DNA from: a virus | Reading direction: 5' to 3' (one strand) | IMG/VR virus record: IMGVR_UViG_3300023213_000095 | Length of the DNA: 64,000 nucleotides | Shown here: positions 8,235-63,519 of the stretch, one piece after another | How the letters are laid out: each line of letters begins with the position of its first letter | Position numbering within the stretch: position 1 is the first letter of the stretch | The notes under the pieces: model-generated | Databases searched by the model: none | What the model saw: only the letters and a program-made list of their open reading frames with translations | What the model was told of the DNA's origin: nothing | Position numbers and translations under genes: made by a program

Positions 8235-8405
8235 ATGGATTGTAAAGGTAAACGGTCGGGCACTCCAGGTCCCAAGGCCCCACATCCATCTCCCAGAAGT
8301 GATCCAGAGCCGGAACCCGGAAGGATTGACATTTACGACAAGAATGGTAACCCCATAGGATATGTCAATGATCCCAACGATTGGGGTAACTGGGCAGATC
8401 GCTAG
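8235..8405 (+). CDS. small hypothetical protein (56 aa)
   Basis: ATG at 8235 is preceded by AAGGGG. This is the last gene of the rightward block, convergent with the minus-strand operon. It is not in the track because it is under 60 aa. Confidence 0.35.
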   Translation: MDCKGKRSGTPGPKAPHPSPRSDPEPEPGRIDIYDKNGNPIGYVNDPNDWGNWADR

Positions 8406-11480: not shown

Positions 11481-11690
11481 TTAGACCTTCTTGCCAGCCG
11501 CCAAGAGTCCAGCCAGGGCAGGATTCGCGGCCTTCTTTTTACGCTGCTTAGGGCGCTTGGGGCCGAGCCCAGCCGAGGGGCCTCGGGCACTGAGCTTGGA
11601 TGCGATACCGGCAGCACCGGGACCGCCGACACTGGTGCCAACACCGAGACCGGCACCGAGACCTGGAGGGAGACCTTGCGGGGGAAACAT
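11481..11690 (-). CDS. hypothetical Gly-rich basic protein
   Basis: The ATG overlaps the stop of the phosphatase gene. It has a KRPKQRKKK tract. This call is tentative. Confidence 0.25.
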   Translation of the reverse strand: MFPPQGLPPGLGAGLGVGTSVGGPGAAGIASKLSARGPSAGLGPKRPKQRKKKAANPALAGLLAAGKKV

Positions 11691-35089: not shown

Positions 35090-35393
35090 AGTTCACAACG
35101 CTGGAGTCCAGCGCAATAGTTGTCGGGTCGGTCTTGTGAATGGTCACTCCGGTATCGCCGTTCACCCCTTTGAGGATAAGAGCCTGGGTGTTCCCAGCTG
35201 GCGGGACGATTGTGGCGGCAGTCGGGGTCGTGCCACCAGTGGGCACAGTTACCGTGTTGTTCCCGGCTCCGGTGAAGGTGAAAATCTGAATCTGGCCAGG
35301 GCTGGCAGTGTTGGAGGCCGCTGAGATGACCTCAGTGCCAACCACCCCACCACTATAGACCAGGGTAATCGTACGGGTTGCTGTTATTGCCAA
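35037..35393 (-). CDS. hypothetical Thr/Gly-rich protein
   Basis: It is 118 aa. It starts 10 nt inside the end of the large terminase gene. Confidence 0.45.
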   Translation of the reverse strand: MAITATRTITLVYSGGVVGTEVISAASNTASPGQIQIFTFTGAGNNTVTVPTGGTTPTAATIVPPAGNTQALILKGVNGDTGVTIHKTDPTTIALDSSVVNFVLNVAGTVTGLQIFWT

Positions 35394-36934
35394 AAGTCGT
35401 CTCCCAGTCTTGTGGAAATACCCTTACGGGCCTGTTCTCGTTCCAGCCACCGAGCCTCGGCGGCATCAAAATCATCCTCACCCATGCCCCGGGCGACCAG
35501 CTCAGCTTCTTTACCTTCCATACGAGCATCATGTCGGCGCATTAGCTCAATAGTGAAACGATAGTCGGCTGGAAGTTTGCTCAGGTCGCGGGTGGGCTTC
35601 TCTTCAGCAGGTTTAACCTTGGGAAGCACCGGCCATGTCATCAGGGCATAGCGGATGCAGTCAGGAAGTTCATCGTCCAGTTTGAAAACTCGCTCCTTGC
35701 GAAGCTGACCGTCACGCTGCTCATCATGTGCCCACCGATAGGCACTCATCTGCTCGATGGTGCGGGGGCAGCGACTGGCGACGAAGAAGAGCTGCTGGGA
35801 ATGAAGCCAGGACTTGACACGTTCAATCCCACTAACCACATCGTTCTCTGAGCCCTGACAGTAAATGTGGTGTTGAGCCAGCTCAATCATCCCTTGGCGT
35901 TCATTCTTGTTGCAAGCAAACTTGGCTTTCTCATTAGCTGCTAGACGCCGGAGATTGATGGCATGCTGGGTGAAGGATTTGTCCTGTTCGAGGTACTCTC
36001 CCACCACAACGAGCCCGTATTCGGTCGATACCAGCTTAACTGCTCCAAAAGGATGCTTTGCTCCCGTATCGATTCCCACGATAACCTGGCGGGTGGGGTT
36101 GATGTCTGGCCATTCGGGGATGATTCGTTTGACGGCCAGGTCATTCCTGAGAATCTGTGACTCGATGAGTCCTGCAAAGACTGCACCCTCGAAGATTACG
36201 AAGTCGGCCTCGTATTCCTGCCGGTACATTCCCTCGGACATCGTGGCCTGGGCTTCAGCCAGCTCAGAGGACTTGATAATAGGGTTGTCCTTGGTAGCAT
36301 AGCGGGTTGCCCAGTAGCCAGGGAATCTTTCGAGAGCCCGTTTATAGAGTTCTCTATATACCCAATCATAACCGTGCGGGGAAGACGTGAAGAAGGCCAC
36401 TCCCTCATGCTCGGTGAGGGAGGGACGAATGACTTCCCAGTGCTCCAGGGTCAGTTCACAAACCTCATCAATCCAGAGCCAATGAAGTCCTTGACCACGG
36501 CCTTGATCCGGCTTCTCCAGGGTCTGGAAGTGAATGAGGCTTCCATTTTTAAGCCATAGATCGTTGTGTTCGACGTTCCAGTTACGCACCCAGTCTGGGG
36601 GGATAAGCTGCTGGAAGGCTCGGATGTCATAACGATGGAGTTTATCATTGGTGGGAGCGCAGACCCAACCAACAGTATTAGGAACTAGGGCTTCTTTGAC
36701 TGCTGCAATGGCCCCTGCTCGTGTCTTGCCACCACGGCGCCCACTGAGTAGGGTGAGTCGATGAAACTGTCGATTTCCCTTGACAAAGCAGGTTGGGCAA
36801 ACAAGGTTTTCAGGGCTAATGAACTTCTGTTGGCACTTCGGGCAAAGGCGGGTTTGTAGAGCTTCCCAGAATTTGGTCTGATAGTAATGTTCCTGAAGTG
36901 GATGGTCGGGTAGAATGGGTAGCCACTTGGCCAT
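35384..36934 (-). CDS. terL: terminase large subunit
   Basis: The Walker A motif is LSGRRGGKTRAG. An N-terminal zinc ribbon (CPKCQQKF ... CPTC) is present. It is 516 aa and lies upstream of the portal gene. Confidence 0.8.
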   Translation of the reverse strand: MAKWLPILPDHPLQEHYYQTKFWEALQTRLCPKCQQKFISPENLVCPTCFVKGNRQFHRLTLLSGRRGGKTRAGAIAAVKEALVPNTVGWVCAPTNDKLHRYDIRAFQQLIPPDWVRNWNVEHNDLWLKNGSLIHFQTLEKPDQGRGQGLHWLWIDEVCELTLEHWEVIRPSLTEHEGVAFFTSSPHGYDWVYRELYKRALERFPGYWATRYATKDNPIIKSSELAEAQATMSEGMYRQEYEADFVIFEGAVFAGLIESQILRNDLAVKRIIPEWPDINPTRQVIVGIDTGAKHPFGAVKLVSTEYGLVVVGEYLEQDKSFTQHAINLRRLAANEKAKFACNKNERQGMIELAQHHIYCQGSENDVVSGIERVKSWLHSQQLFFVASRCPRTIEQMSAYRWAHDEQRDGQLRKERVFKLDDELPDCIRYALMTWPVLPKVKPAEEKPTRDLSKLPADYRFTIELMRRHDARMEGKEAELVARGMGEDDFDAAEARWLEREQARKGISTRLGDDFWQ

Positions 36935-47504: not shown

Positions 47505-47718
47505 TGAGCATCACAATCCTTTTCATCCTGGTGATTATCAAGGCGATCATCGGGAAGGTGTGGCTGAGATGACCAAGATCGTGCAAATGCTCCGGCACTT
47601 TCTCTGTCCACATCTCGCTGAACTGCCTGTACTTGAGAAGGATCGGATCTATCTCAAGTGCTACAACTGCGGGCGGGAGACTGTTGGCTGGAGGATCGGC
47701 AAATGCCAAACCCCCTGA
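47482..47718 (+). CDS. small His/Cys-containing protein
   Basis: It is 78 aa with a CYNCGRET motif. Confidence 0.4.
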   Translation: MSSTGETDEHHNPFHPGDYQGDHREGVAEMTKIVQMLRHFLCPHLAELPVLEKDRIYLKCYNCGRETVGWRIGKCQTP

Positions 47719-48098
47719 TCGGTAAGATCATCACGGCGATCTATCTGACTGAGGACAAGCAGGCCATCAAGTTCGAAGTGGAGGATGTAAATCCTACATT
47801 AATCGTGCTGGTTGAAGGAGACTGCTGCTCCATCAGCTGGGTGGAGAACTTTGAGAATCCAGAAGCGGCGATCGGATCTCCTGTCCTGGAAGCTGTTGAC
47901 ATCGCCATGCCAGATCTTGGTGAGCAGCCTGGCCATGATGTTATGGAGTACTATGGCTTCAAGATCGTGACTGCCAAGGGCCACTGCATCATCGATTACC
48001 GGAATGACTCCAATGGCGATTATGGTGGCAACCTGTGCTGGCAAGGAGTTTTCGGGCCTTACTGGTCGGCTCAGAAATGGGTGAAGGTTGCAGGGTAA
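47703..48098 (+). CDS. hypothetical protein
   Basis: The start was refined to ATG at 47703 (MPNPLIGK). Confidence 0.45.
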   Translation: MPNPLIGKIITAIYLTEDKQAIKFEVEDVNPTLIVLVEGDCCSISWVENFENPEAAIGSPVLEAVDIAMPDLGEQPGHDVMEYYGFKIVTAKGHCIIDYRNDSNGDYGGNLCWQGVFGPYWSAQKWVKVAG

Positions 48099-49346: not shown

Positions 49347-49592
49347 GTGGTTGTAACCCTCACAGTGAAAGACAGCAGCGGAAAGATCCTGCTGAACCGG
49401 CCTGTCCAGTTCTATCGCTGGCATCTGACTAGTTTCATTTGCCACATTGATGAGTTCTGCTGGGAGTACAATGGCCGCAAAGCCAAAGGTCAAGATCAAG
49501 CCAAACTTGACACTGCTGCTCCACCTGCAGTGCAGGCCGGAGCTGTTCAGGCACCGGGCTGGCGGTCAATCCTGATGAGGTTGTTCCAGTGA
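49347..49592 (+). CDS. hypothetical protein
   Basis: GTG start is preceded by AAGGAGG plus a 6 nt spacer. The stop overlaps the next ATG. Confidence 0.4.
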   Translation: MVVTLTVKDSSGKILLNRPVQFYRWHLTSFICHIDEFCWEYNGRKAKGQDQAKLDTAAPPAVQAGAVQAPGWRSILMRLFQ

Positions 49593-50134
49593 ACCTTGAC
49601 TTCATGTCCAAGATCAAGGCCGAACCGGACTGGTTCTTCAAAATGTTGGTGGATTCTGATGAACACTGCCTGTCCAGTAGACAGGAGTTCCCGTATATTT
49701 GCTATGACAGTGAATCCTTCCTAAAGATCATCAAGCCTCACATGAAGAGAGCAAAGACCTTCATTGATGTGGGCTGTGGCGGCGGCGACAAGCTGGCTCT
49801 GGTCAAACAGAAATGGCCCAAGGTTGAAGTATTTGGTATAGAGCATACACCAATGACGGCAATCTGGGCTGGCCTGCATGGCAAGGTGTTCTGCCAGGAT
49901 GCCCTGAAAGTAGACTACAGTCCCTATGATGTGATCTATGCCTACTGGCCGATTTGTAACATCGAAAAAATGGATCTTCTCTGTCAGAGGATTAGAGCCA
50001 CCAAGAAGTGCAAGGCCGTGTTTGTGTTGGTGGGTTGTGGGAGGATTACGGAGGGAAAAACGGGTTACCCTGTATCATTGCAGTCCTGTGTCTCGGCTAG
50101 ATGGAAGTGGCAGGAAGGCTGCTGGATCAGATGA
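49589..50134 (+). CDS. class I SAM-dependent methyltransferase (substrate unknown)
   Basis: Motif I is FIDVGCGGGD. A post-I acidic residue follows (FGIEH). It has a Rossmann-fold layout and no DPPY/NPPY or PCQ motif. Confidence 0.65.
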   Translation: MNLDFMSKIKAEPDWFFKMLVDSDEHCLSSRQEFPYICYDSESFLKIIKPHMKRAKTFIDVGCGGGDKLALVKQKWPKVEVFGIEHTPMTAIWAGLHGKVFCQDALKVDYSPYDVIYAYWPICNIEKMDLLCQRIRATKKCKAVFVLVGCGRITEGKTGYPVSLQSCVSARWKWQEGCWIR

Positions 50135-52330: not shown

Positions 52331-53578
52331 TTGTTGGAGATGGCTATTGACAAAGTCAAGAAACCGGGCTTGATCATCTGCCCGAGCAGTAAAGAGCTGT
52401 ATCTGGGCTGCGACCCGGAGATGTTCTTTGAGAAGGGTGGTCAGATCATCGGTTCAGAGCGGGTTCTGGATGGGATGCAGAAGAGCTGCGAGGAGTCTGA
52501 CTATCTGAACTACGTGGTAATAGATGGAGTCCAGCTCGAACTGAATCCCCCAGCCAGCTACTGCCGCGAGGTTCTAGGGTCTGTGATCGCCGACACCTTT
52601 GCTGCGCTGGTAGAACGTCTGGAGCTATTTGATGGTGTCTCGCTCAACTTCGAGGGCGTGGTCCATGTGCCCCTGGCTGAGCTGGAGTCACTGTCACCGA
52701 GGGCCAGAGAGCTTGGCTGCCAGCCGAGCTTCAACATCTACAAGCCGAAGGCTGCAGTGGATGTTAAGGTGGCTAGGAACATGAGATCGGCCGCCGGACA
52801 TATCCATTTAGGGTTTACCAACTCTATTTTCAATCCCGGTGTCACACCCCATGACCATCGGCCCAGGCTGGTGCCGATCCTCGATGTGGTTCTGGGCAAC
52901 ACCTGTGTGCTGTTGGATCGCAATCCACTGGCAGCACGGCGCCGGGAAGTCTACGGGCGGGCTGGAGAGTTCAGGCTTCCTAAATATGGGCTGGAATATC
53001 GGACGCTGAGCAACTTCTGGCTCCGTAGTTATCAGTTGTTCTCGCTGGTAATGGGACTGGCCCGGATGAGTGTGGGCATCTTACAGACCACCCTGGAAAC
53101 CAAGCTGGACTTGGAGAAGGAACTGCTTACGGCTGTTGATCTTGAGCTGGTCGAGCGGGCCATTAATACCAACAACATCCACCTTGCCAAGATGACCTAC
53201 AAGATCTTCAGGGAGTTTGTGGCGAAGCGGACTGAGGCATATGGAGCAGCCGGCTTCTTTGGTATTGATGTGGGCTCCCTGGATGCCTTCGAATACTTCC
53301 TAGAGAAGGTTGAGAAGCACGGGTTAGAGCACTGGTTCCCAGAAGATCCGGTGAGCCACTGGTACAAACGCAGCCATGTATTCCATAGTGAGCGTCTTCG
53401 GGAGCGAGGTGTTATTGAAGCACGCGGTGGGGGATACTTCTGGGGAAGGACTCATTGGATCGGCGCCGAAAGGTTCCTTGCTGAGGATATCCCGGCCCTG
53501 TGGGCCAAACAGGAGGAGTACGGGGCTTACGACATCACGGAGTTGCACAGGGAACCGGCTGATGGTCCAACCCTGTGA
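52331..53578 (+). CDS. putative glutamine-synthetase-fold carboxylate-amine ligase (GCS2/amidoligase-like), divergent
   Basis: It is 415 aa. An N-terminal strand LYLGCDPEMFF resembles the GxExE nucleotide/metal strand of the GCS2/amidoligase families. A G-H-x-H motif (AAGHIHLGF) parallels the CGLHVHMSF of the neighbouring amidoligase. The assignment is inferred. Confidence 0.4.
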   Translation: MLEMAIDKVKKPGLIICPSSKELYLGCDPEMFFEKGGQIIGSERVLDGMQKSCEESDYLNYVVIDGVQLELNPPASYCREVLGSVIADTFAALVERLELFDGVSLNFEGVVHVPLAELESLSPRARELGCQPSFNIYKPKAAVDVKVARNMRSAAGHIHLGFTNSIFNPGVTPHDHRPRLVPILDVVLGNTCVLLDRNPLAARRREVYGRAGEFRLPKYGLEYRTLSNFWLRSYQLFSLVMGLARMSVGILQTTLETKLDLEKELLTAVDLELVERAINTNNIHLAKMTYKIFREFVAKRTEAYGAAGFFGIDVGSLDAFEYFLEKVEKHGLEHWFPEDPVSHWYKRSHVFHSERLRERGVIEARGGGYFWGRTHWIGAERFLAEDIPALWAKQEEYGAYDITELHREPADGPTL

Positions 53579-53607
53579 AATGTTAACCACCATCCATAGG
53601 AGGACCG

Positions 53608-53820
53608 ATGAGTTCAGTCTACGTGTATCTTTCAATAGCAATCTTTGCAGCACTCGCCACCGACCGGTTGTTCGGGATCGCCATCACCTACGGCATCGCA
53701 CGGTGGCGCTATCAGGAGGAAGCCAAGTTCCTGAAGGAACTCGTGGCAATGCGGGCAGAGGACGCTCAGATCGCAGCGGCGGAAGATCGGCTCGTCGACG
53801 GCAATGTTCTACCCAACTAA
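53608..53820 (+). CDS. small membrane protein
   Basis: It has a TM helix (VYVYLSIAIFAALA). Confidence 0.45.
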   Translation: MSSVYVYLSIAIFAALATDRLFGIAITYGIARWRYQEEAKFLKELVAMRAEDAQIAAAEDRLVDGNVLPN

Positions 53821-53854
53821 TGCACAGAAAGCACTGTGGAGGAGATTGGGAATC

Positions 53855-54406
53855 ATGCAGGGACCAGTTGAGGCAGTCATCGAGAAGGGTGCAGTGAAGC
53901 GCATCCAGATAGGGCTGTATCGGACGTTCAAGGGGATACAGCTATCTGTCAAAGTCTCCCCGGAAGTCGAGGAGTTTGCTCGCACCATCAGTGATGGACA
54001 GATCGTGAACGTCAAGATGGTAGGGCGTCACTGGCGGACTGCTGAGGATGCTAAGCCCCTGCAGTTCTACAACCTGGCGGAGGAGTACAGCAGGACCCTG
54101 GTAAATGAGCCACTAGGCTACAGGCTCGATGCCATCGGCCAGCCACTCTTTGATCCAGAGTCGGGTGCCATCAATCTCAGCTTCCTGCGACTGGTGGGTA
54201 TCAGTGAGGGGGCGGGGGTCACATTTACCATCCGGCAGGTTTCGAGCCTGGATGGGTTGCGACAGATGCGGGATGCACTGGGCAAAGCGGGGACGAAGTT
54301 CTATCGAGATCTCATTCGCCCGGTTGACTTGCCGATCAGCATCTCAACACAGGAGATCTTCCCGGCGGTCGGTCAACACCAGCTCAGTAATATCTTCGGG
54401 AGGTAG
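53855..54406 (+). CDS. hypothetical protein
   Basis: The start was refined to ATG at 53855 (MQGPVEAV), with GGAGA upstream. Confidence 0.45.
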   Translation: MQGPVEAVIEKGAVKRIQIGLYRTFKGIQLSVKVSPEVEEFARTISDGQIVNVKMVGRHWRTAEDAKPLQFYNLAEEYSRTLVNEPLGYRLDAIGQPLFDPESGAINLSFLRLVGISEGAGVTFTIRQVSSLDGLRQMRDALGKAGTKFYRDLIRPVDLPISISTQEIFPAVGQHQLSNIFGR

Positions 54407-54407
54407 T

Positions 54408-55229
54408 GTGGACGCCCTAGACCTTGACAACCTGCTCAAACAGCGGCTCAAGAATCACTTGTACAGGGTGGGGATTGAGCTTGAAGGGAGATGGAAGAAG
54501 CTGCCGGCTGGCACACGGCTTGAGCATGATGGTAGTGTAAAGTTCGTGAAGCCTCCAGCCAAGCCCAATCCTCACGATTATCCGACAAGGCAGCACTACC
54601 AGGCGGCTGTGCGGCGGTATGAGAGTGCTGCAGTGTTTCCTCAGTTCATGACTGAGGCTGAGGGTGTTGGTGAGCTGGTGAGCACACCCCTACCACCCGA
54701 CAAGGTGGCTGAGTGGATCAAACAGAGCTACCCGGATGAGGTCAATGCCTCCTGCGGGCTGCATGTCCACATGAGCTTCCTGTCGCTACGGTTCTACTCT
54801 CAGTTGATGACCAAGGAGTTCCAAGGCACGGTTGTCAAGTATCTGAAGGCCTGGGGCGGTGAGGAGGAGTTGCCCAAGGATCATCCCCTATTTGCCAGGC
54901 TTGAGCCTGGAGGCAATGAGTACTGCACTCATAATTTCTGGCCTGATCAACAGGCTGCAAAAAGTGGTCACAAGGACTACGATCGGGCCAAACCGGGGAA
55001 TCGCTATACTGGGGTGGCCTATCCATTCCAGATGCACGAAACCATCGAGTGTCGGTTTCTGCCAATGTTCGAGTCGGCTAACCGCTCCATCAGGGCAGTG
55101 CAGCGGGTAATGGACATCACGAACGCATCGCTGTTCAAGCTGGCGGGGAAGAAGGAGAAGCGGGATAAAGTAGAAATCATCGAGTCGCACGCTGCAATCG
55201 TGGAGTTGTGGGAAAAGTACGTAGACTAG
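54408..55229 (+). CDS. Amidoligase_2-family enzyme (glutamine-synthetase-fold COOH-NH2 ligase)
   Basis: GTG start at 54408 lies 4 nt after GGGAGG. The motifs YRVGIELEGRW (GxExE) and CGLHVHMSF (HVH) are typical of PF12224. Confidence 0.6.
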   Translation: MDALDLDNLLKQRLKNHLYRVGIELEGRWKKLPAGTRLEHDGSVKFVKPPAKPNPHDYPTRQHYQAAVRRYESAAVFPQFMTEAEGVGELVSTPLPPDKVAEWIKQSYPDEVNASCGLHVHMSFLSLRFYSQLMTKEFQGTVVKYLKAWGGEEELPKDHPLFARLEPGGNEYCTHNFWPDQQAAKSGHKDYDRAKPGNRYTGVAYPFQMHETIECRFLPMFESANRSIRAVQRVMDITNASLFKLAGKKEKRDKVEIIESHAAIVELWEKYVD

Positions 55230-55239
55230 GAGGTGAGGT

Positions 55240-56301
55240 TTGTGTGTCATTATGATCGCTGAGAAGCAGCGGCCAACATCTTTGATGGTGGCAGATGCTT
55301 ACCACCAGAACCCTGAAGGTTTTGGTATTGCCTACCGTGATGGGGAAGGCAAGGAGAAAGTCGTTCGGTGGAAGAAGGGCCTGTTCAAGTTGGAGGAGGC
55401 ACAGGAACTTTGTGCCGACACCCCATTGCCCTACATTGCCCACTTCAGGGTGGCATCAGTAGGTGGGGTCAAGGCTGGGCTCTGTCACCCATTTCCTGTC
55501 GAGGTAGATGTACCCCTTCGGGAGGAAGGTTACACCAAGGGATACGTCTTGTTCCACAACGGTCACTGGGCCAATTGGGACAAGTCCCTGTTGGAGGCAA
55601 CCTACCGGGGACAGGGGAAGAAAATCCCAGCGGGCCGGTGGAGTGATTCCAGAGCAATGGCCTGGATGGCTGCCCAGTATGGCCTGGGCATCTTGGAGTT
55701 CATCGGGGAGAAGTGCATCGCTTTCTCACCGGACTCCTACGAGATCGTGGCGGGCACTGGGTGGTCACTGGTGAACGACATCTGGTGCAGTAACAATTTT
55801 TTCGTCCAGCGGTGGCAGAGGACTACAAAGGATGTGACAATCCTCGATGGGGAGAAGAGTGGTCACTCTACTGCGGGTAAAACGGACGAGCCCAAGCGGG
55901 GCCATGTCACGACCCTCAGAGGCTATGCGGCTGGTATGTGCCGCTATGGCTCCTGCACCGCTAAGAAGGATCTGGATGCGAGCGGGTTCTGTCCCAAACA
56001 TCTAAGAGAAAGTCGCGATGGGCGCCGGGTCGTTGAGCTAAGGAGCCAGTCCGGTGGTACTGGTGCCATCGTCCCTTTCGACCAGGCCGTCAAGATGTTT
56101 CGGGAGGGGAAGATCTCGAAAGAAATGGTATCGAACAACAAATGGAAGCAGCTTCGGAGGGAGATGGGCAAGCAGGTGGATCAGGAGTTCAAGACGGCAC
56201 TGAAACAGGAAGCAGCAGAAGCAGCGGCTCATCGGGCAAGGATCGCCAAGCTGGCAGAGGAGTTGACCTCGGAGGTTCCGCCAGTGTTGGTGAAGCACTA
56301 A
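55240..56301 (+). CDS. class-II (Ntn) glutamine amidotransferase-like protein with a Lys/Glu-rich C-terminal tail
   Basis: The N-terminal Met-Cys (MCVIMIAEK) would give an N-terminal nucleophile Cys. The motifs HFRVASVG and HNGHW are present. The helical K/E-rich C-terminus is about 100 aa. Confidence 0.6.
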   Translation: MCVIMIAEKQRPTSLMVADAYHQNPEGFGIAYRDGEGKEKVVRWKKGLFKLEEAQELCADTPLPYIAHFRVASVGGVKAGLCHPFPVEVDVPLREEGYTKGYVLFHNGHWANWDKSLLEATYRGQGKKIPAGRWSDSRAMAWMAAQYGLGILEFIGEKCIAFSPDSYEIVAGTGWSLVNDIWCSNNFFVQRWQRTTKDVTILDGEKSGHSTAGKTDEPKRGHVTTLRGYAAGMCRYGSCTAKKDLDASGFCPKHLRESRDGRRVVELRSQSGGTGAIVPFDQAVKMFREGKISKEMVSNNKWKQLRREMGKQVDQEFKTALKQEAAEAAAHRARIAKLAEELTSEVPPVLVKH

Positions 56302-56467
56302 GGGACAACGGTCACTCCAGTACGGTCAGGAACCTAATGGAGTGGGTTCGCAGCAAGAACCCCAGCAGGTATAAGGGGAACCGGGCAGTTCAGACCGATG
56401 AAGAGCTTGAGCGGGAGCGGCGACTTGAAGCTGCCCGCCAGGGCATTATCATTGTAGGGAGGATGTA

Positions 56468-57295
56468 ATGGTTCGGCTCTATAAGCACTTAGTGAGGGCA
56501 TTGTGGATGATGCTCCGTAACATGTCGGATCGAGTAGGGGCTGATACCCTTGATGACCTCTGGCTGCGGGCAGTAAGAGGTATTTACAGCTCTGAAGACA
56601 TGAAAAATATGGAAACAGATATCCTACCCCGCAGCTTTGGGGAGCTGATCAAGCTCATTGACAAGGTGTCATATGGGCAGAGGGCGGACCAAGACATCAT
56701 CGATCTCGTCGTAACACAGCTCCAGCTCCCTTGGATTGACAACATGACCTCGATGAGGAAACTGAAGGCTCTGCGAAGGGCGCTGCTGCTCCCCGAGGAG
56801 CTGAACAAGCTGCGGGAAGTCATGAATGAGCAGGAGTTCCACTGTCCGAGTTGTGGCAGCACATTCCAGATTGGTGAGATGTGTACCATTACTAAGAGTG
56901 ACACTGGTGGGCTCAGGGTGGTATGTGCTCACTGCACAGTGCCCACCTCTGTATCGTGCCTGTATGGGAAGCACAAGATCGGCTTTAGAAGCAGTGGGCT
57001 GAAGGCACAGATGCTTAAGTGTGAGGAGTGCAGCAACCCGAAGCTAAAGGTGAATGACCAAGTTGTCCAGGAGCCACAATTGAATGAACCAGGACCTGCT
57101 CTGGCTCTGGAAGCTCCTGGGGTTGTTCGGTTCCGTGCTGTGGTGCGTCCGGCTGCCATCAACCCCTTTGGACAAGGAGACTTCGTAGTTGGTCGGCGCA
57201 GAGATAGGCCACAAGTAAACCGTGCTGCTCCACTACCACTTGTACCGTTACTTGATGAGGATATCGACGAGGGGGACAACGATGACCCTAGATGA
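56468..57295 (+). CDS. zinc-finger-containing hypothetical protein
   Basis: It is 275 aa. Cys motifs include CPSCG ... CAHC ... CEEC. Confidence 0.5.
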   Translation: MVRLYKHLVRALWMMLRNMSDRVGADTLDDLWLRAVRGIYSSEDMKNMETDILPRSFGELIKLIDKVSYGQRADQDIIDLVVTQLQLPWIDNMTSMRKLKALRRALLLPEELNKLREVMNEQEFHCPSCGSTFQIGEMCTITKSDTGGLRVVCAHCTVPTSVSCLYGKHKIGFRSSGLKAQMLKCEECSNPKLKVNDQVVQEPQLNEPGPALALEAPGVVRFRAVVRPAAINPFGQGDFVVGRRRDRPQVNRAAPLPLVPLLDEDIDEGDNDDPR

Positions 57296-57560
57296 GCTGA
57301 ATGCCGAAGCTGCCAAACTGAAGGAGAAGCGGCCGGTCGTCCTCGACGGTGAGGTGGTGAGTCTAGAAGCAACCGAGGATGACTTCAAATACGACTGTCA
57401 GTTTGCTGAGGCCCTTGACATGCTTCAACGGGCCGGTGAGCTGATTGATCGACTGAGCGATTGGGACTTCGATAAGAAAACCAATGCGGAGCTTGGGGAG
57501 CTGTCTCAGGACATCTATGTCTTCCTCAATGATGTGGATGGAGAGGAGAACGGGTTCTAA
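57282..57560 (+). CDS. hypothetical acidic protein
   Basis: The start was refined to ATG at 57282 (MTLDELNAEAAKL). Confidence 0.4.
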   Translation: MTLDELNAEAAKLKEKRPVVLDGEVVSLEATEDDFKYDCQFAEALDMLQRAGELIDRLSDWDFDKKTNAELGELSQDIYVFLNDVDGEENGF

Positions 57561-57561
57561 C

Positions 57562-57714
57562 ATGAAAATCATGTGGTATGTGGGAGGAGTCCTCTGGTTA
57601 GCTACTGGATCACTCCAAGTCTACCTCGCAAGCTACAACAAGCTATGGTTGATACCTGCTGTCCTGTCCTTCTTGGCCGCGGCGCTCAATGCATTATCTG
57701 GAGCACTAACATGA
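57562..57714 (+). CDS. small membrane protein (50 aa)
   Basis: ATG at 57562 (MKIMWYVGGVLWLATG ...). It is ATGA-coupled to the ATP-grasp gene. Confidence 0.4.
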   Translation: MKIMWYVGGVLWLATGSLQVYLASYNKLWLIPAVLSFLAAALNALSGALT

Positions 57715-58430
57715 TCTGGGTCTACCGCCGACATGCTTCGGCCAGTGCTCACAGGCTGGCAAAGGTTCTCAAGGGCATCCGGCTGAGAGATGCTGGACTC
57801 ATTGGTACCGATCGGTTCACCATCCCGAAGGGTGAGAAGAATGCCCTAATCTGCTGGGGTGAGCAGTTCAGCAGCAAGAAGTTTGCCGTGCTGAATGGGA
57901 AGTCCCCTATCCGGGAGAAGTTCAACGACGCTAAGTTATTGCAGGCAAAGGACATCCCGACTATCCAGGTCAGGCGTCACAGGCCGGATGATGACCAGAA
58001 ATGGTTGCCTCGGGAGAGTGATCACAGTGCCGGGGCTGACCTGATCGAGGGCACTGAAGATCCTCACTACTTTGCCAAGTGGGAACCCCTGGTGAGAGAG
58101 TATCGGGTTCACATGTTCCAGGGGCTGAGCATTCGAGCGGGCCGCAAGGTTCAGCGGGATGACTTCAGGAACCCTCACAAGTGGATTCGCAGCTACGATG
58201 CTGGGTGGGATATGCTGTATGATGGTGTTCAACCACGACAGCGACAGCTGGCCCGAGATGCCTGCAAGGCACTGGAGTTGGACTTCGGTGCTGTCGATAT
58301 CGGGGAACGGCAGGATGGGAGTTTGATTGTGCTGGAAGTCAATCGGGCTCCGGCACTTGATGAGGGTAGCACAGCATATAACTATGCTGAGGCTATTCAG
58401 GAGTGGGTCGATGGACTTGAGAGGACTTGA
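57711..58430 (+). CDS. ATP-grasp superfamily ligase (RimK/glutathione-synthetase-like)
   Basis: The motifs YRVHMFQG and LVLEVNRAPAL (E-x-N metal-binding) are present. The start was refined to ATG at 57711. Confidence 0.6.
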   Translation: MIWVYRRHASASAHRLAKVLKGIRLRDAGLIGTDRFTIPKGEKNALICWGEQFSSKKFAVLNGKSPIREKFNDAKLLQAKDIPTIQVRRHRPDDDQKWLPRESDHSAGADLIEGTEDPHYFAKWEPLVREYRVHMFQGLSIRAGRKVQRDDFRNPHKWIRSYDAGWDMLYDGVQPRQRQLARDACKALELDFGAVDIGERQDGSLIVLEVNRAPALDEGSTAYNYAEAIQEWVDGLERT

Positions 58431-58437: not shown

Positions 58438-58848
58438 ATGCGGGAGCGGGCTGAAGCTTTTGAAGCCCGTAAGGCCCGTGCTGCAGCTCAGTTGGCAGAG
58501 ATTGATGCTGCCACAAAGGCTGAGCCCGTCACAGAGCACCGGGATTATTGCATGTGCGACCCATGCCTTGTGGCTAGAAGGAAGGCAGCTGTAAGCAAGC
58601 CACTCCCTTTACTCTTGACGAGTGGTACCGAGGACCCTCCAGAGAAACCACTGATCCCGGTGAGGACATGGCGTGGGAAGGTGGTCTACACGGCTGCTGG
58701 CCCATGTTCGAGGGAAACTAAGGACACGAAGGTCCTTGACGAGTACAAACTGACCACTGGGAAGCACATCATTGTGCTGGAGGTTAATGGGAAGGTGGAG
58801 CGCCGGGTGATGATGCCTGATGGACATCTTGGTGCAGTGGAGGAATGA
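58438..58848 (+). CDS. hypothetical protein
   Basis: The start was refined to ATG at 58438 (MRERAEAF). Confidence 0.45.
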   Translation: MRERAEAFEARKARAAAQLAEIDAATKAEPVTEHRDYCMCDPCLVARRKAAVSKPLPLLLTSGTEDPPEKPLIPVRTWRGKVVYTAAGPCSRETKDTKVLDEYKLTTGKHIIVLEVNGKVERRVMMPDGHLGAVEE

Positions 58849-59435
58849 TGGCGAGGATTATAGCGAGCGGTAATGGCTGTGGGATGGACACATTAAGCTT
58901 TCTACACAATGTGGAGGACGGATACTACAGCTACTACCAACACTGTAGATCTCCTAATACTCCTGAGGGTTATCTGTTGGAGATCCTCAAGGCCATGGAG
59001 AATCCTAAGAGCGGCTACGGGGAGTCACACCAGAAAGGCTGGGACAAGAATGCCAAGCCCATCCGGGTTCCAATCCATCTCCTCTATGCTGGCACCTGTA
59101 AGCAGGGGGGCTATTATCGGGGTGGGGAAGCCATTGAGTATGCCTGTGATGTGTTGAAGATGGGCACCTACATCAAGAGCAAGCCTACCAAGAATCGGAT
59201 GTACCATCCCAATCGTGATGCCATCATCTGGGTCTGGACACCTGACCCGATTGCTGTGATCAGATGGTGGGTCAAAAAGAGGCCGGATAGCCACAAGGTG
59301 TGGTGCGATGGGCGCAAGGAATATCGGGCTAAGAAACTCGCTGAGCGGTTGAAACGAGAGGCAGCGGTCAAACCAAAGATGCATCAGCCTGTCCAGAATG
59401 TCAGGATGACGCATGTACAAGTACAAGAATGGTAG
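58845..59435 (+). CDS. hypothetical protein (paralogue A of a tandem pair)
   Basis: It is 196 aa. It shares IIWVWTPDPIAVIRWWVKKRP-type motifs with the next gene. Confidence 0.5.
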   Translation: MMARIIASGNGCGMDTLSFLHNVEDGYYSYYQHCRSPNTPEGYLLEILKAMENPKSGYGESHQKGWDKNAKPIRVPIHLLYAGTCKQGGYYRGGEAIEYACDVLKMGTYIKSKPTKNRMYHPNRDAIIWVWTPDPIAVIRWWVKKRPDSHKVWCDGRKEYRAKKLAERLKREAAVKPKMHQPVQNVRMTHVQVQEW

Positions 59436-59438: not shown

Positions 59439-59888
59439 ATGGACATTCATAACACTCACTGCTGCGCCGTGGGTGAGCTGGCCTATATTGGGCATGAAAG
59501 GAGTGCCCCGCAGACGCTCAGGGACATCTGTAAGACCATCTTGGAGCCCTACAGGTCGCCATATATTCCCAGCCCCAGAAACCAAGCTTATCGCAAGCCC
59601 TCAGCCTTCTACTACTTTGCGGCTGTTAGTAAACACAGAGCACGGGAACGTGGGCCGCGCCGCAAGGGCCGCTACGGTGAAGAACTGGTCAACTACATCA
59701 AGCTGCACAATCTTGGTAAGGTGTGGCAAACCGAGCCCCGCAGCAACCGTGGAAACCACCCGGGTCATATGATCACTGTGTATATGTGGGCACCTGATGA
59801 GAGAGCCCTCAAAGCATGGTGGGATAAGGAGAAACGTCGTGGGAAGGCTGTCAAAAGAGGTCAAGAACCGGCAGTGCCGGTCCTGTAG
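59439..59888 (+). CDS. hypothetical protein (paralogue B of a tandem pair)
   Basis: It is 149 aa. The motif MITVYMWAPDERALKAWWDKEKRRG parallels the previous gene. Confidence 0.5.
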   Translation: MDIHNTHCCAVGELAYIGHERSAPQTLRDICKTILEPYRSPYIPSPRNQAYRKPSAFYYFAAVSKHRARERGPRRKGRYGEELVNYIKLHNLGKVWQTEPRSNRGNHPGHMITVYMWAPDERALKAWWDKEKRRGKAVKRGQEPAVPVL

Positions 59889-60697: not shown

Positions 60698-60947
60698 GCG
60701 GATGAACCTGGACGGAAACCACTGCAAGGAGTCAGTGGGGCGATGGAGGCAGAACATGAGTGACGGCAGCGAAGTATTTCTCAGCTTCAGGGAGACCATG
60801 GATCTGATGGCTAAACAGATCGTGACCTTGACTGAACAGGTTGAGGGGCTCAAGACTCAGCTTGAAGAGCAGCACGAGGAAGTGCTGGAGAAGATTGACA
60901 ACCTCTCCGAGGGTGGAAGTGGGATGACTGTGGAGAATTACCAATGA
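60684..60947 (+). CDS. coiled-coil hypothetical protein
   Basis: It is 87 aa. Confidence 0.4.
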   Translation: MVYVERMNLDGNHCKESVGRWRQNMSDGSEVFLSFRETMDLMAKQIVTLTEQVEGLKTQLEEQHEEVLEKIDNLSEGGSGMTVENYQ

Positions 60948-61969
60948 GCAGTTGGCATAGCTATCCAAGCATCTACAACCTTGGGCACCTGGCTGTCCGG
61001 GCTCTCTTCGATGTACCAGTGAGGATCGAAGAGAAAATTGACGGGAGCCAGTTCAGTTTTGGGATCTTTGGGGATGAGACTCCTGTGGTTTCCCCACATG
61101 ATCTAGAACTTGGGTTATTTCTCAAGGTCCGTTCCAAGGGCGCAGTGATGGAGCCCGATGCCCCGGAGAAGATGTTCAACCTCGCCGTGGTCTCAGTCAA
61201 GGAGCGCCTGCATCTGCTGCATCCTGGCTGGACCTATCGTGGTGAGTATCTCAGGGTGCCCAAACACAATACCCTAGCTTATGACCGCATCCCCAACGGT
61301 CATATCATCATCTTTGATATCAACACTGGGGAGGAGGAATACCTGACTTATGCGGAGAAGGCAGCCGAGGCAACCCGCATTGGCCTGGAAGTTGTCCCTA
61401 GCCTTTTTGAGGGGTATGTCAAATCGCCCGATGAGCTTCGGCGATTCCTGGACACTCCCAGCCTACTTGGTGGGCAGAAGATTGAGGGTGTCGTTATCAA
61501 GCAAGTTGGGCCGGACTTCCTCTATGGGCAGGACCACAAGGCACTCATGGGCAAATTCGTCAGCGAGGCTTTCAAGGAAGCTCATACTGGTAGTTGGAAG
61601 GAATCCAACCCGGGCAGTGGGGACATCCTCGTTCAGCTCGGCAAGCGGTATTGCCATCCCGGAAGGTGGCTCAAGGCCGTCCAGCACCTGAAAGAGGCTG
61701 GGAAACTGGAGGATTCGGTTCGAGACATCAGTAAGCTCATCATTGAGGTTCAGAAGGACCTCGGGCAGGAGGAGAAGGAGGATATCCAGCGTTTCCTGTG
61801 GAAGTGGGCACAACCACGCATTAGCCGCGCATCAACGCGTGGGCTCGCAGAATGGTATAAGAATGAACTGTTGAGGCAGCAGTTCGAACGGGAGGGTGTG
61901 GATGAAAGCACTGGGATTGTTGTTGTTGCTGGTGGTGACGGTGTGGATTCGAACGGTGGGGAGGGGTAA
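60944..61969 (+). CDS. ATP-dependent polynucleotide ligase of the RNA-ligase (Rnl2/RNA_ligase) type
   Basis: The nucleotidyltransferase motif I KxDG is present (EEKIDGSQFSF). The motif EGVVIK is motif IV/V-like. It is 341 aa. A DNA-ligase identity is not excluded. Confidence 0.55.
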   Translation: MSSWHSYPSIYNLGHLAVRALFDVPVRIEEKIDGSQFSFGIFGDETPVVSPHDLELGLFLKVRSKGAVMEPDAPEKMFNLAVVSVKERLHLLHPGWTYRGEYLRVPKHNTLAYDRIPNGHIIIFDINTGEEEYLTYAEKAAEATRIGLEVVPSLFEGYVKSPDELRRFLDTPSLLGGQKIEGVVIKQVGPDFLYGQDHKALMGKFVSEAFKEAHTGSWKESNPGSGDILVQLGKRYCHPGRWLKAVQHLKEAGKLEDSVRDISKLIIEVQKDLGQEEKEDIQRFLWKWAQPRISRASTRGLAEWYKNELLRQQFEREGVDESTGIVVVAGGDGVDSNGGEG

Positions 61970-62117: not shown

Positions 62118-62756
62118 GTGAAAATCTATGCAATCAGCGACCAGCACGGACATCTGGGGCCGGATATCCCTGAGTGTGACCTGTTGATCGTGGCAGGGGA
62201 CGTAGCACCGAGCTGGCATGGGCCAAGAAACCCTGGTGCCGAGCGACAGCGACAGGACCTCTGGATGGTCAATTGGTTTGCATGGATTAAGCGACAGCCT
62301 ATGAAGGCCTGGTATGCCTGTTGGGGCAACCATGACTACGCCAGCCCAATTAAAGGGTTCTGTGATGGCCCGATTGAACACAACCTGCTCAAGCTCTGGT
62401 TCAGCCCCTGGTCCAACGAGTTCTGCAGGTGGAACTGGATGAAGCAGCCGGAGGAGCTTGGGGAGTATTACAAACAGATCCCCTATGGGACTGACATCAT
62501 CGTGAGCCACCAACCGCCCTATGGGTATGGGGATCTGCTAGCACCATTCATGCGGCGAGGGGGAGAGGATCCCCACGTTGGGTCTAAGGAGCTGTTGGAA
62601 ACCATCAAGCGGATTCAACCAAAGGCAGTGGTGTGTGGGCATATCCATGATGGGCATGGCATCTACAAGCTGAATGATGATACAACCATCTACAACGTAG
62701 CTGTGGTGGATGAGAGCTATTGGTTGGTCCATTCGGCAACGGAGATTGTTCTATGA
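62118..62756 (+). CDS. calcineurin-like metallophosphoesterase
   Basis: The motifs ISDQHGH, GDV and GNHD are present. Confidence 0.65.
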   Translation: MKIYAISDQHGHLGPDIPECDLLIVAGDVAPSWHGPRNPGAERQRQDLWMVNWFAWIKRQPMKAWYACWGNHDYASPIKGFCDGPIEHNLLKLWFSPWSNEFCRWNWMKQPEELGEYYKQIPYGTDIIVSHQPPYGYGDLLAPFMRRGGEDPHVGSKELLETIKRIQPKAVVCGHIHDGHGIYKLNDDTTIYNVAVVDESYWLVHSATEIVL

Positions 62757-62902
62757 GAGTTCTATGTTGGTTCGGTTGGCACAACTGGAGCCGCACTGAT
62801 CAGGTCAACCGGTACTGTATGGACTGTTTCCTGCATCAGGTGCTGATGCTTAATAATCCTACATACAAAGAGGGCTGGCACGATCACTGCCACTACCGTT
62901 AA
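62753..62902 (+). CDS. small Cys/His-rich protein (49 aa)
   Basis: The ATG overlaps the previous stop (ATGA). It contains CMDC ... HDHCH. Confidence 0.35.
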   Translation: MRVLCWFGWHNWSRTDQVNRYCMDCFLHQVLMLNNPTYKEGWHDHCHYR

Positions 62903-63519
62903 TGGAAATCTGGTTTACGAGCGATACCCACTTCGGCCATGAGAACATCATCCGCTACTGCGGACGTCCCTTCAAGGACGCGAGGGAGATGGATGAATGT
63001 CTGGTCGAACAGTGGAACCTCCGGGTGAAGCCGTCGGACCACATCTACCACCTGGGAGATATCACAATGGCAAGGGATGGGAGGGGGGACGGACTCGCCA
63101 TCGTCAAGCGCCTAAACGGGCACAAACGGCTGATCATGGGCAATCATGATCACTACAAAGCTGGGATCTACCTCAAATTTTTTGAGAAGGTCATGGCCAT
63201 GCAGCGGTTTAATGACATATGGTTCATGCATGTCCCATGTCACCCGACCAACCTGGGGACCTCGACTGCATGTGTTCATGGGCACATTCACCAGAACCCG
63301 TCGCCGCCTCCGGTGGTCATCTACCACAGGAAGTTCGTGGGTGGACCGGAGAAGAAAATGGTGCCACGGGCGGTGCCGTACATCAACATCTGCGTGGAGC
63401 AGACCAACTATCATCCGGTGACCCTTGAAGAAATCAGAGTCATGGTCCGAAAGGCAGCCGAAGTGGAAATGTCCACGCTGCAAACAGTGGGTGCGTTCCC
63501 CGATGGGGAAGGTGTGTGA
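62902..63519 (+). CDS. calcineurin-like metallophosphoesterase (second paralogue)
   Basis: The motifs SDTHFGH, GD and GNHDH are present. Confidence 0.65.
   Translation: MEIWFTSDTHFGHENIIRYCGRPFKDAREMDECLVEQWNLRVKPSDHIYHLGDITMARDGRGDGLAIVKRLNGHKRLIMGNHDHYKAGIYLKFFEKVMAMQRFNDIWFMHVPCHPTNLGTSTACVHGHIHQNPSPPPVVIYHRKFVGGPEKKMVPRAVPYINICVEQTNYHPVTLEEIRVMVRKAAEVEMSTLQTVGAFPDGEGV

Follow-up and report, generated by a model that had tools for sequence, protein, structure and literature searches.

Amidoligase cassettes of cultured phages

A gene cassette that combines amidoligases with an ATP-grasp ligase and, usually, a gamma-glutamyl cyclotransferase has been described in LUZ24/PaP3/tf/UFV-P2, PA11/O4/TC6, phiEco32, 7-11, RIO-1, PSA-HP1, and CW02 (PMC5498523, PMC3890496, PMC11945000). 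In the literature it is called a "putative peptidoglycan modification module", a name attributed to Iyer 2009 and Hardies 2013 (PMC5498523, PMC11945000, PMC10580990, PMC11318856), and the phiEco32 group carries it as a seven-gene "peptidoglycan modification cassette" (PMC5498523). The cassette genes share one strand and lie apart from the virion-gene block. The gene order in UFV-P2 is COOH-NH2_lig, a 186-aa protein, Amidoligase_2, GAT-II, two small ORFs, ATP-grasp, and AIG2/GGCT, and in this phage and its LUZ24-like relatives the cassette lies on the strand opposite to the virion-gene block (PMC3890496). No biochemical characterization of the cassette or of any of its members was found in the literature searched.

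The window analysed here is a 64,000-nt stretch of DNA from an uncultured tailed phage. Its + strand carries, at 52.3–58.4 kb, four enzymes of amide-bond chemistry, termed A, D, E, and I. The sequence-only reading had placed these four enzymes on one strand at essentially the same coordinates, classified them as two GS-fold ligases, an Ntn class-II GATase, and an ATP-grasp ligase, and tied them to the amidoligase work of Iyer et al. The location was borne out by ORF and family searches, the classification agrees with profile, fold, and motif evidence, and the tie to the published work holds. The same reading regarded a four-enzyme phage set with an ATP-grasp as uncharacterized, which is correct with respect to biochemistry, but the set is a recognized cassette. 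We consider it probable (about 0.62) that the region is a divergent version of this known phage amidoligase cassette, which would build and edit a gamma-glutamyl-type amide on an acceptor. New features are the divergent D–E pair, a previously unremarked small partner, C, a conserved zinc-ribbon protein, F, and the missing cyclotransferase.

Comparison with the window

The closest arrangement is found in the LUZ24-like phages (Bruynoghevirus; UFV-P2 ORF21–29, PaP3, tf), which share the four families and their order with the window. However, AIG2/GGCT follows the ATP-grasp gene in UFV-P2 and is absent from the window, and the window's D and E, unlike the LUZ24-like proteins, escape Pfam and PHROGs. 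In the position of F, UFV-P2 has the two small ORFs and no annotated counterpart (PMC3890496), and its 486-aa GAT-II has a longer C-terminal domain, in place of which E has a zinc knuckle and a charged tail. The O4/PA11/TC6 phages (Zobellviridae, Paundecimvirus) encode GAT-II (gp56), COOH-NH2_lig (gp55), gp54 (182 aa in O4), Amidoligase_2 (gp53), and an R2K ATP-grasp (gp52). Homology between PA11/O4 and the window is detected for A (E 1e-27) and I (E 5e-12), and the core motifs of E align to the O4 GAT-II, but D aligns to gp53 only over the N-terminal E-x-E strand. In O4, GAT-II is located upstream of the ligases, whereas E is downstream of D, and O4 has an additional Peptidase_C26/class-I GATase. 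The gp54-like partners of the classical cassettes end in a conserved L-x-E-h-h motif; they have no detectable homology to C, so the equivalence of the two is only positional. The third group, phiEco32, Salmonella 7-11, Proteus Privateer, and Pseudoalteromonas RIO-1, PSA-HP1, and Slicky01, combines COOH-NH2_lig type 2, a second amidoligase, GAT-II, ATP-grasp, and sometimes GGCT; the annotated genomes of Privateer and Slicky01 contain the same families as the cassette. The lengths of the phiEco32-group ATP-grasp (∼620 aa) and GAT-II (470–600 aa) indicate multidomain proteins, in contrast to the minimal forms of 239 and 353 aa in the window.

Dozens of related contigs, as well as cultured phages, carry the set with its order unchanged, and the co-location of the four enzymes is therefore not due to chance. 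In the window's own lineage the order is [GGACT]-A-C-D-E-F-I, with a GGACT/AIG2 gene adjoining A in L008, L010, L011, L024, L050, L051, and L077; this cyclotransferase was not found in the window itself. E immediately follows D in 51 of 69 cases, C immediately precedes D in 44 of 71, and the full C-D-E triad is present in 33 of 58. Loci L016 and L017 contain tandem triads that are each other's closest relatives and within which C diverges most. The C-D-E triad is the recurrent evolutionary unit; A, F, and I join it, as does a gamma-glutamyl(amine) cyclotransferase in relatives. Conserved neighbors of the cassette in relatives are RNA-repair genes (RNA ligase and phosphoesterases). A clear Shine-Dalgarno sequence precedes A, D, and E but not the ATP-grasp gene I, and residues expected for catalysis are retained in all four enzymes.

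The ligases A and I

In the profile-HMM searches by which the sequence-only reading proposed to check the enzymes, A and I scored above the Pfam cut-offs, and D and E did not. A (52340..53578, + strand, 412 aa) is a phiEco32-type COOH-NH2 ligase type 2 of the GS/GCS superfamily. Its ORF opens at TTG 52331, and ATG 52340, preceded at 9 nt by AGGAGG, is the likely start. A matches PF14395 COOH-NH2_lig with 34.8 bits (Pfam cut-off 25) and phrog_3815 with an E-value of 2.7e-36, and tblastn matches were obtained in 311 phage records. Residues D28-P29-E30, E70, H157/H159, and E222-Y223-R224 are kept in 13 homologues. A C-terminal extension of ∼120 aa distinguishes A from the cultured-phage versions, which are 265–290 aa long.

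I (57711..58430, + strand, 239 aa) is a short RimK/R2K-like ATP-grasp ligase that matches R2K_3 with 26.7 bits (cut-off 26.3), RimK and R2K_2 more weakly, phrog_2599 with an E-value of 9e-21, and TIGR00768 rimK_fam with an E-value of 7.8e-8; the MptN and LysX models also match, RimK structures are recovered at E 1e-3, and 239 phage records contain tblastn matches. The conserved residues are K123, E130-x-R132, D196, and E209-x-N211. Among characterized proteins, I is closest to RimK and MptN, which are glutamate ligases, and to LysX, which ligates glutamate to LysW. For members of the R2K clade, CDC123 among them, a role as ATP-dependent assembly factors instead of ligases is possible.

The divergent D–E pair

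D (54408..55229, + strand, 273 aa, GTG start) is predicted to be a divergent Amidoligase_2-like carboxylate-amine ligase with the GS/GCS fold, and its predicted structure shares the fold of PafA/Dop. Neither D nor E gave an above-threshold match to Pfam or PHROGs; owing to their strong divergence, the Pfam assignments of both rest on sub-threshold matches, predicted structure, and motifs. Cultured phages and bacterial genomes contain almost no members of the D and E families, and tblastn with D gave no match in cultured phages.

E (55240..56301, + strand, 353 aa, TTG start) is a stand-alone class-II (Ntn) GATase-type domain. The protein starts with Met-Cys, and downstream of the GATase domain (residues 1–∼190) lie a C-x4-C-x11-C-x2-H zinc knuckle and a tail rich in K, R, and E. 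All of 36 homologues retain R70, H83-P84-F85, H106-N107-G108, and D136, which form what we take to be the catalytic set of PurF-type class-II GATases. The Met-Cys start is present in 28 of these homologues, the other eight having apparently mis-called starts, and the zinc knuckle in 24. E matches GATase_6 at E 5.9e-4, below the Pfam threshold, and 15 of 36 member searches returned weak GATase_6/GATase_4 matches; more than 360 homologues lack Pfam domains. The knuckle faintly resembles WRC and zf-C3Hc3H, and the tail is basic. An E-like N-terminus also occurs inside a gene of phage C75C1 annotated as a cyclotransferase.

C, F, and the small ORFs

The enzyme genes had been described as separated only by small, partly membrane-protein ORFs. 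This applies to B and H, which are small and hydrophobic, but C and F are conserved members of the module. C (53855..54406, + strand, 183 aa, or 200 aa from the upstream ATG 53804) is an unannotated, obligate-looking partner of the D–E pair, and a structure search with it gave no match. Members of its family are 160–200 aa long, share the core motif N-L-S-F-L-R-L-V-G-I-S-E-G-A-G-V-T-F, and have the tail consensus Y-[LM]-[KR]-P-[VI]-[DN]-[LM]-x-V-x-V-S-T-Q-E-x-x-x-COOH, S-T-Q-E-x-x-x being the usual ending; the window's C extends 17 residues beyond S-T-Q-E. Among 160 diverse C proteins, 89 stop 1–4 residues past Q-[ED], 59 of them exactly 3 residues past it (the background is 0.33% per position), whereas this ending is missing in ∼44% of representatives. 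The structure model places the tail with low confidence.

F (56468..57295, + strand, 275 aa) begins with a helical part, continues with two zinc ribbons of the Cys4 type and a Pro-rich linker, and ends in an acidic tail. Its homologues sit between E and I in most related loci. In 12 aligned sequences C126, C129, C153, C156, and C185 are invariant and nearly all have the acidic tail; family searches returned only weak zinc-ribbon matches. The remaining ORFs are also on the + strand. B (53608..53820, 70 aa) has a hydrophobic N-terminal segment and may be a membrane protein, as may the hydrophobic H (57562..57714, 50 aa). B has one weak match in related loci (L005), and a hydrophobic small ORF occurs in the E-to-I interval in 3 of 19, so neither is a conserved module member. 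G (57282..57560, 92 aa) is very acidic (25 D+E versus 9 K+R), with no family match and no homologue in related loci.

Proposed mechanism

A, D, and I would act as three ATP-dependent carboxylate-amine ligases that form successive amide bonds on one acceptor, most probably on glutamate or gamma-glutamyl carboxylates, A and D by the acyl-phosphate route of the GS/GCS fold and I as a RimK-like ATP-grasp. The Cys1 Ntn enzyme E, the neighbor of D, may hydrolyze glutamine and supply ammonia to D, the two forming a two-subunit amidotransferase; this channelling is conjectural, as E has no fused synthase domain. Alternatively, E may act on a gamma-glutamyl amide by cleavage or editing, in the way that EgtC follows EgtA. 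The fastest-evolving protein, C, is co-duplicated with D and E and could serve as a dedicated specificity, scaffold, or substrate partner. EgtA/EgtC, PuuA/PuuD, LysW/LysX, and RimK/S6 pair a glutamyl-amide ligase of the GS/GCS or ATP-grasp fold with a GATase-type hydrolase that removes the product or with an acceptor protein bearing a C-terminal Glu. The similarity of the window to these systems is at the level of fold or superfamily, not orthology, and none of their other pathway genes is present. The gamma-glutamyl assignment derives from neighbors in relatives, since the window itself lacks a cyclotransferase; further such neighbors are the gamma-glutamyl-hydrolase-type Peptidase_C26 protein of O4 and a Peptidase_M19 dipeptidase in L024.

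Candidate acceptors

Cell-wall precursors, small metabolites, and proteins of the host or the phage are all possible acceptors. In peptidoglycan remodelling, the ligases would rebuild or alter stem-peptide linkages of cell-wall precursors (gamma-D-Glu-mDAP, amidation), while the Ntn enzyme and cyclotransferase degrade the host versions, which would block superinfection or ready the wall for lysis. Stem peptides do carry a gamma-glutamyl-amine bond and amidated carboxylates, and two small hydrophobic ORFs lie inside the window's cassette, but these ORFs are not conserved and profile searches revealed no signal peptide or Mur-ligase domain in any cassette protein. Moreover, the cassette lies among replication and RNA-repair genes, away from the endolysin (12778–13308, opposite strand), and an invariant cell-wall substrate does not obviously call for the fast-evolving C or for tandem C-D-E triads. 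This standing hypothesis of the literature (Iyer 2009; Hardies 2013; PMC5498523, PMC11945000, PMC10580990, PMC11318856) is itself a prediction, and we regard it as unlikely for the window.

A role of the cassette in making or reshaping a compound of the glutathione-like or gamma-glutamyl-amine type, such as a gamma-Glu-X-Y peptide, its amide, or a polyamine conjugate, is likewise doubtful; in this reading host redox or polyamine pools would be reprogrammed during infection. The resemblance of A and D to GshA and of I to GshB is one of fold or superfamily, not orthology, M19 is found in a single locus, and the conserved non-enzymatic C and F would be left unexplained.

Protein tagging on the model of Pup/Dop/PafA, LysW/LysX, and S6/RimK, with C, and possibly F, as the substrate whose conserved C-terminal tail E would process and D would ligate, appears quite improbable. 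It is favored by the recurrent Q-[ED] ending and low-confidence tail of C, by the co-duplication and fast divergence of C, by the fold of D, by the relation of I to RimK and LysX, enzymes whose targets are C-terminal protein glutamates, and by the tails of F and the gp54-like proteins. However, the motif is not at the very C-terminus of C and is missing from many representatives, and the tail may be no more than a docking strand. The Pup system uses a disordered protein of ∼64 aa with a terminal GGQ or GGE, which is deamidated by a paralogue of PafA. By contrast, C and its homologues are folded proteins of 160–200 aa and not short disordered tags, the hydrolase of the cassette belongs to the Ntn class-II GATases, and a proteasome context is absent.

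Attachment of an amino acid or amide to a phage-DNA base or to RNA is very improbable: the knuckle and basic tail of E and the conserved RNA ligase and phosphoesterases would fit, but the knuckle is lineage-specific, E is ∼195 aa long in L012 and L015, and we know of no report of hypermodified DNA in the cassette carriers LUZ24, PaP3, phiEco32, and PA11. The link to a DNA-modification toolkit drawn by the sequence-only reading found no support, since dUMP/dCMP hydroxymethylase, 5-hmdU kinase, aGPT-pyrophosphorylase, and TET/JBP, as genes of thymidine or cytosine hypermodification, were absent among the window ORFs scanned. In its favor, Pfam amidoligase and glutamine-amidotransferase genes do occur in some metagenomic clusters for thymidine hypermodification (PMC8989533). 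The window carries a Dam methylase, a deoxyribosyltransferase-like protein, and a dGTP-diphosphohydrolase-like domain.

Enzymes of the cassette

Between 52331 and 58430 the sequence-only reading had placed four enzymes of amide-bond chemistry, and Pfam, PHROGs and the motifs of homologues located all four of them there. Protein A (52331/52340–53578) is a COOH-NH2 ligase of type 2, the phiEco32 type (PF14395, 34.8 bits against a Pfam cut-off of 25), which also matched phrog_3815 over 270 residues (E 2.7e-36); a single-sequence search of the PDB with A returned no match. Shine-Dalgarno sequences precede genes A to H, and the position of the one before A favours ATG 52340 as its start.

Protein D (54408–55229) gave no match in single-sequence scans of Pfam, PHROGs, NCBIfam and PADLOC, the last of which matched no other cassette protein either. 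D has 97 metagenomic homologues. The residues invariant in the family (E24, E26, D41, S43, E89, H119, H121, E214 and R216) are read as the pattern of a carboxylate-amine ligase, and weak Amidoligase_2 matches were found in 22 of 38 family members. Protein E (55240–56301) starts with Met-Cys, as do 28 of its 36 homologues, so that loss of Met would leave the predicted catalytic Cys at the N-terminus. Its residues R70, H83-P84-F85, H106-N107-G108 (with the Asn-Gly oxyanion pair) and D136 are invariant in all 36 and are read as the catalytic set of a PurF-type class-II amidotransferase (GAT-II). The match of E to Pfam GATase_6 lies under the cut-off (20.3 bits versus 27), and sub-threshold matches to GATase_6 and GATase_4 recur across the family. 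Profiles of the D and E families found nothing meaningful among PDB sequences. No synthase domain is fused to E. Of the 36 E homologues, 24 have a zinc knuckle, C-x4-C-x8-14-C-x2-H; in the window it takes the form C-x4-C-x11-C-x2-H and is followed by a K/R/E-rich tail (residues ∼230–353), and in distant loci, where E is short, the protein has neither knuckle nor tail. A few E homologues also bear a faint resemblance to WRC and zf-C3Hc3H domains.

Protein I (57711–58430) is an ATP-grasp ligase that passes the Pfam R2K_3 cut-off marginally (26.7 bits versus 26.3), scores 18.1 bits with R2K_2 and 18.3 with RimK, and also matches phrog_2599, the RimK family model, MptN, LysX and crystal structures of RimK. 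It retains K123, E130-x-R132, D196 and E209-x-N211. In the R2K.3 family the final strand of the kinase-like domain carries ExGD rather than ExN (PMC4431377, Burroughs 2015); I lacks this R2K.3 feature and has the standard ExN, as V-L-E209-V-N211. Three of the four enzymes have the fold of an ATP-dependent carboxylate-amine ligase and the fourth is an Ntn cysteine hydrolase or amidotransferase; all keep intact catalytic residues, and they are co-inherited as a unit.

A divergent version of a known phage cassette

The operon is real and not a chance assembly; it is a divergent version of a known, biochemically uncharacterised phage cassette. As that cassette does, the window has, besides A, another GS/GCS-fold ligase, D, of Amidoligase_2 type, beside a GAT-II gene (E). 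The order A-C-D-E-...-I, in which C is an unannotated protein (53855–54406), is that of ORF21–28 of the LUZ24-like phage UFV-P2, in which a 265-aa COOH-NH2 ligase, a conserved 186-aa protein, Amidoligase_2, (HNH) and GAT-II are followed by two small ORFs, an ATP-grasp protein and AIG2/GGCT (PMC3890496). Pseudomonas phage O4 encodes GAT-II, COOH-NH2 ligase, a 182-aa protein, Amidoligase_2 and an R2K-type ATP-grasp protein, and these families recur in Proteus phage Privateer and Pseudoalteromonas phage Slicky01. A seven-gene 'peptidoglycan modification cassette' has been described in RIO-1, phiEco32, 7-11, PA11, tf, MR299-2, LUZ24, PaP3 and CW02 in a report that cites Iyer and Hardies with their co-workers (PMC5498523), and it was repeated in 2025 with its function still offered as a suggestion (PMC11945000); the name 'putative peptidoglycan modification module' is attributed to Iyer 2009 and Hardies 2013. 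Contrary to what had been supposed before any database search, a four-enzyme set that includes an ATP-grasp ligase is therefore already described, in O4, Privateer, Slicky01, UFV-P2 and the phages of PMC5498523; the supposition that such a set is uncharacterised appears right, as the literature searched held no experimental study. I is homologous to the ATP-grasp proteins O4 gp52, Privateer gp086 and that of Slicky01, the core motifs of E align weakly with the GAT-II of O4, gp56 (hhalign E 0.0085), and in profile–profile comparison D aligned with O4 gp53 only at the N-terminal E-x-E strand. An orthologue of the glutathione, glutathionylspermidine or cyanophycin pathways was rejected, as the similarity is at the level of the fold and no pathway-specific family scored.

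An AIG2/GGCT/GGACT cyclotransferase belongs to many, though not all, versions of the cassette, and the window has none: phmmer and jackhmmer comparisons of its ORFs with the GGACT protein of a 103-kb relative, L024, found no cyclotransferase. Among related loci, the GGACT gene abuts A in L008, L010, L011, L024, L050, L051 and L077. In L024 (1191–3334 and 11437–11682), where it likewise abuts the COOH-NH2 ligase gene, a 397-aa R2K_3 ATP-grasp protein adjoins a Peptidase_M19 dipeptidase, and an ORF of the Acb5 family (PF26761) lies downstream.

The cassette is among the most widespread function-unassigned multi-enzyme modules of lytic phages, its carriers include therapy candidates (LUZ24-, PA11- and phiEco32-like phages), and its role has stood as a prediction since 2009. 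The window alone brings no new chemistry. What it does show is that in its lineage the D-E pair is locked to the small protein C, which has a conserved C-terminal motif, and that the C-D-E triad is what duplicates. These two observations provide a direct experimental handle that could assign a substrate class to the cassette family.

Distribution and gene order

In tblastn searches of 50,697 phage records, A matched 311 records and I matched 239. Searches of cultured phages with C and with D gave zero matches, and E gave four weak, N-terminal matches only, to the OM43 phages MEP401 and MEP402 and two metagenome-derived phages. A single weak match to the D family was found in 185,579 bacterial and archaeal species genomes. 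These searches show that the predicted amidoligase/GAT-II pair occurs in a large lineage limited to uncultured phages. At the nucleotide level, the 6.1-kb region had no similarity to any of the 50,697 phage genomes. In total, 81 loci were collected from IMG/VR, metagenomes and assemblies, with ORF families assigned by iterated HMM searches; a search of IMG/VR with C added no loci to those already collected.

The order conserved in the lineage of the window is [GGACT]-A-C-D-E-F-I, and remoter contigs keep only C-D-E or D-E. Where enough sequence was available, the gene immediately after D is E in 51 of 69 cases, the gene immediately before D is C in 44 of 71, and the triad is complete in 33 of 58. 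Protein F (56468–57295), with two zinc ribbons, a proline-rich linker and an acidic tail, is kept between E and I. The small ORFs B, G and H are not conserved among related loci, and the small membrane ORFs were dropped as core parts for this reason; the interval over which such ORFs were counted omitted the window's own H, since H overlaps the I ORF.

Protein C and duplication of the C-D-E triad

Single-sequence scans of Pfam, PHROG, NCBIfam and PADLOC gave no match for C, and its predicted structure (pLDDT 85.6, with low confidence in the tail only) had no structural match. The core segment N-L-S-F-L-R-L-V-G-I-S-E-G-A-G-V-T-F is almost invariant. Among 160 diverse representatives (P0218–P0377), 89 end one to four residues past Q-[ED], and exactly three residues past it in 59; elsewhere in the same proteins Q-[ED] occupies 0.33% of positions. 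The consensus of the tail is Y-[LM]-[KR]-P-[VI]-[DN]-[LM]-x-V-x-V-S-T-Q-E-x-x-x-COOH, and C of the window extends 17 residues beyond S-T-Q-E. The proteins at the same position in known cassettes (O4 gp54, gp091 and Slicky-62) had no detectable homology to C by hhalign with 3 or 9 reference sequences. Small gp54-like proteins (L085–L090; L002 7861–8409) sit between the COOH-NH2 ligase and Amidoligase_2, and their family shares a conserved C-terminal ending, ...[YF]-L-x-E-x-L-x-E-h-h. That this family, like C, ends in a conserved tail is taken as a lead rather than as a result.

Two or three C-D-E triads in tandem, with extra copies of D, were found in L016 (6175–13685) and L017 (3902–11563), IMG/VR contigs of 121 and 150 kb. 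Most triads have their closest relative in another triad of their own genome. Similarity between the triads, as a fraction of the self-score, is 0.06–0.24 for C, 0.26–0.39 for D and 0.29–0.50 for E. Judged by these scores, C is the most diverged component; the unit that duplicates is C-D-E. The correlations of similarity for C-D, D-E and C-E are all about 0.53–0.58, which does not discriminate between models.

Proposed chemistry and alternative readings

The chemistry of the cassette would centre on glutamyl amides, because the accessory enzymes of relatives are a gamma-glutamyl(amine) cyclotransferase, a protein of the C26 gamma-glutamyl-hydrolase type and an M19 dipeptidase, because an E-like domain lies inside an annotated cyclotransferase gene of phage C75C1, and because I is closest, among characterised enzymes, to ligases of glutamate. 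The first 108 residues of E have their match in a 298-aa protein of C75C1 (OQ984151.1; L025, 4001–4897) that is annotated as a gamma-glutamyl cyclotransferase; its gene follows an annotated amidoligase gene at a distance of 850 bp and may be a GAT-II/cyclotransferase fusion. The constant adjacency of D and E suggests that they might work together, either as a two-subunit glutamine-dependent amidoligase or as a ligase/amidohydrolase couple of the kind known from EgtA/EgtC and PuuA/PuuD. D, the constant neighbour of E, would in the first case be the candidate acceptor of its ammonia.

One reading that would unite the triad is a protein-conjugation or carrier system, in which E would deamidate or trim the tail of C, D, a ligase with the fold of PafA, would join the tail to an amine of the target, a protein or a metabolite, and A, I and F would add to the modification or accept it. 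We consider it unlikely, at a probability of roughly one in eight. If true, the system would follow the logic of Pup or LysW with parts unrelated to theirs and would be confined to uncultured phages, and the tandem triads of large phages would supply several specificities.

The literature prediction, modification of peptidoglycan, is possible and gains nothing from the window. The cassette proteins lack both a signal peptide and a Mur-ligase domain, related loci do not keep the small membrane ORFs, and a dedicated, fast-evolving protein partner such as C would be unexpected for a fixed cell-wall substrate. An adduct on DNA, to which the sequence-only reading had linked the cluster through a DNA-modification toolkit elsewhere in the window, lacks its expected companion genes. 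The one connection in the literature is the presence of Pfam matches to amidoligase and amidotransferase in some metagenomic clusters for thymidine hypermodification (PMC8989533). Pfam and PHROG scans of ∼50 ORFs across the window, all but a few of those of 100 aa or more, found no dUMP/dCMP hydroxymethylase, TET/JBP, 5-hmdU DNA kinase or aGPT-pyrophosphorylase, the enzymes of thymidine and cytosine hypermodification clusters (Lee 2018/2021); their absence from the ORFs scanned speaks against the adduct. The toolkit presumably consisted of a Dam-type N6-adenine methyltransferase (3364–3846, E 1.3e-28), a weak nucleoside 2-deoxyribosyltransferase-like protein (6834–7271) and an N-terminal domain of dATP/dGTP diphosphohydrolases (7740–8231; PF18909, E 1.2e-10; phrog_27780). 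Pupylation itself, with Pup as a short disordered tag ending in GGQ/GGE, the ligase PafA and its paralogue Dop, is matched only in the fold of D: C is folded and ends in QExxx, and the hydrolase is of the Ntn type and not a PafA paralogue.

Genomic setting

The window is the genome of a tailed phage and had no nucleotide match among the 50,697 phage records. The cassette lies on one strand, in a densely packed plus-strand block that runs from ∼47 kb to the end of the window, outside the virion and packaging genes, which occupy ∼13–41 kb on the minus strand and include the major head protein (29577–30878), portal (31842–34139) and large terminase (35384–36934). The terminase shares at most about 28% identity with its counterparts in cultured phages, which assigns the phage to an uncultured lineage; its top matches are phages of 104–119 kb, which we take to be T5-like. 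Related contigs come largely from groundwater, and other sample names we read as soil and sediment. A family-A-type DNA polymerase is encoded at 4093–6852. Promoter and terminator consensus scans gave no excess over shuffled sequence, and a tRNA scan found none.

Just downstream of the cassette are genes for an RNA ligase (60944–61969, PF09414) and two calcineurin-type phosphoesterases (62118–62756 and 62902–63519). An RNA ligase is also close to the cassette in L008, L009, L010, L050, L051 and L077, and in L004 (2541–9360) cREC, TROVE/Ro60, a PNKP-like kinase-phosphatase and an RNA ligase lie directly upstream of D. This proximity may reflect a functional linkage or plain synteny. Two adjacent paralogous ORFs of an unannotated family (58845–59435 and 59439–59888; 196 and 149 aa) follow I, and one to three copies of this family stand beside the cassette in nearly all related contigs. 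Upstream of the cassette, the plus-strand block contains a DUF7448 protein (47658–48098, E 1.3e-11) and a weak SAM-methyltransferase-like ORF (49589–50134). The minus strand also encodes a histidine-phosphatase-family protein (11690–12301), a GH108 endolysin with a PG_binding_3 domain (12778–13308) and a Band-7/SPFH protein (8402–8959) adjoined by a trypsin-like protease (8966–9613); Privateer, too, encodes a band-7 protein at a distance of a few kb from the cassette.
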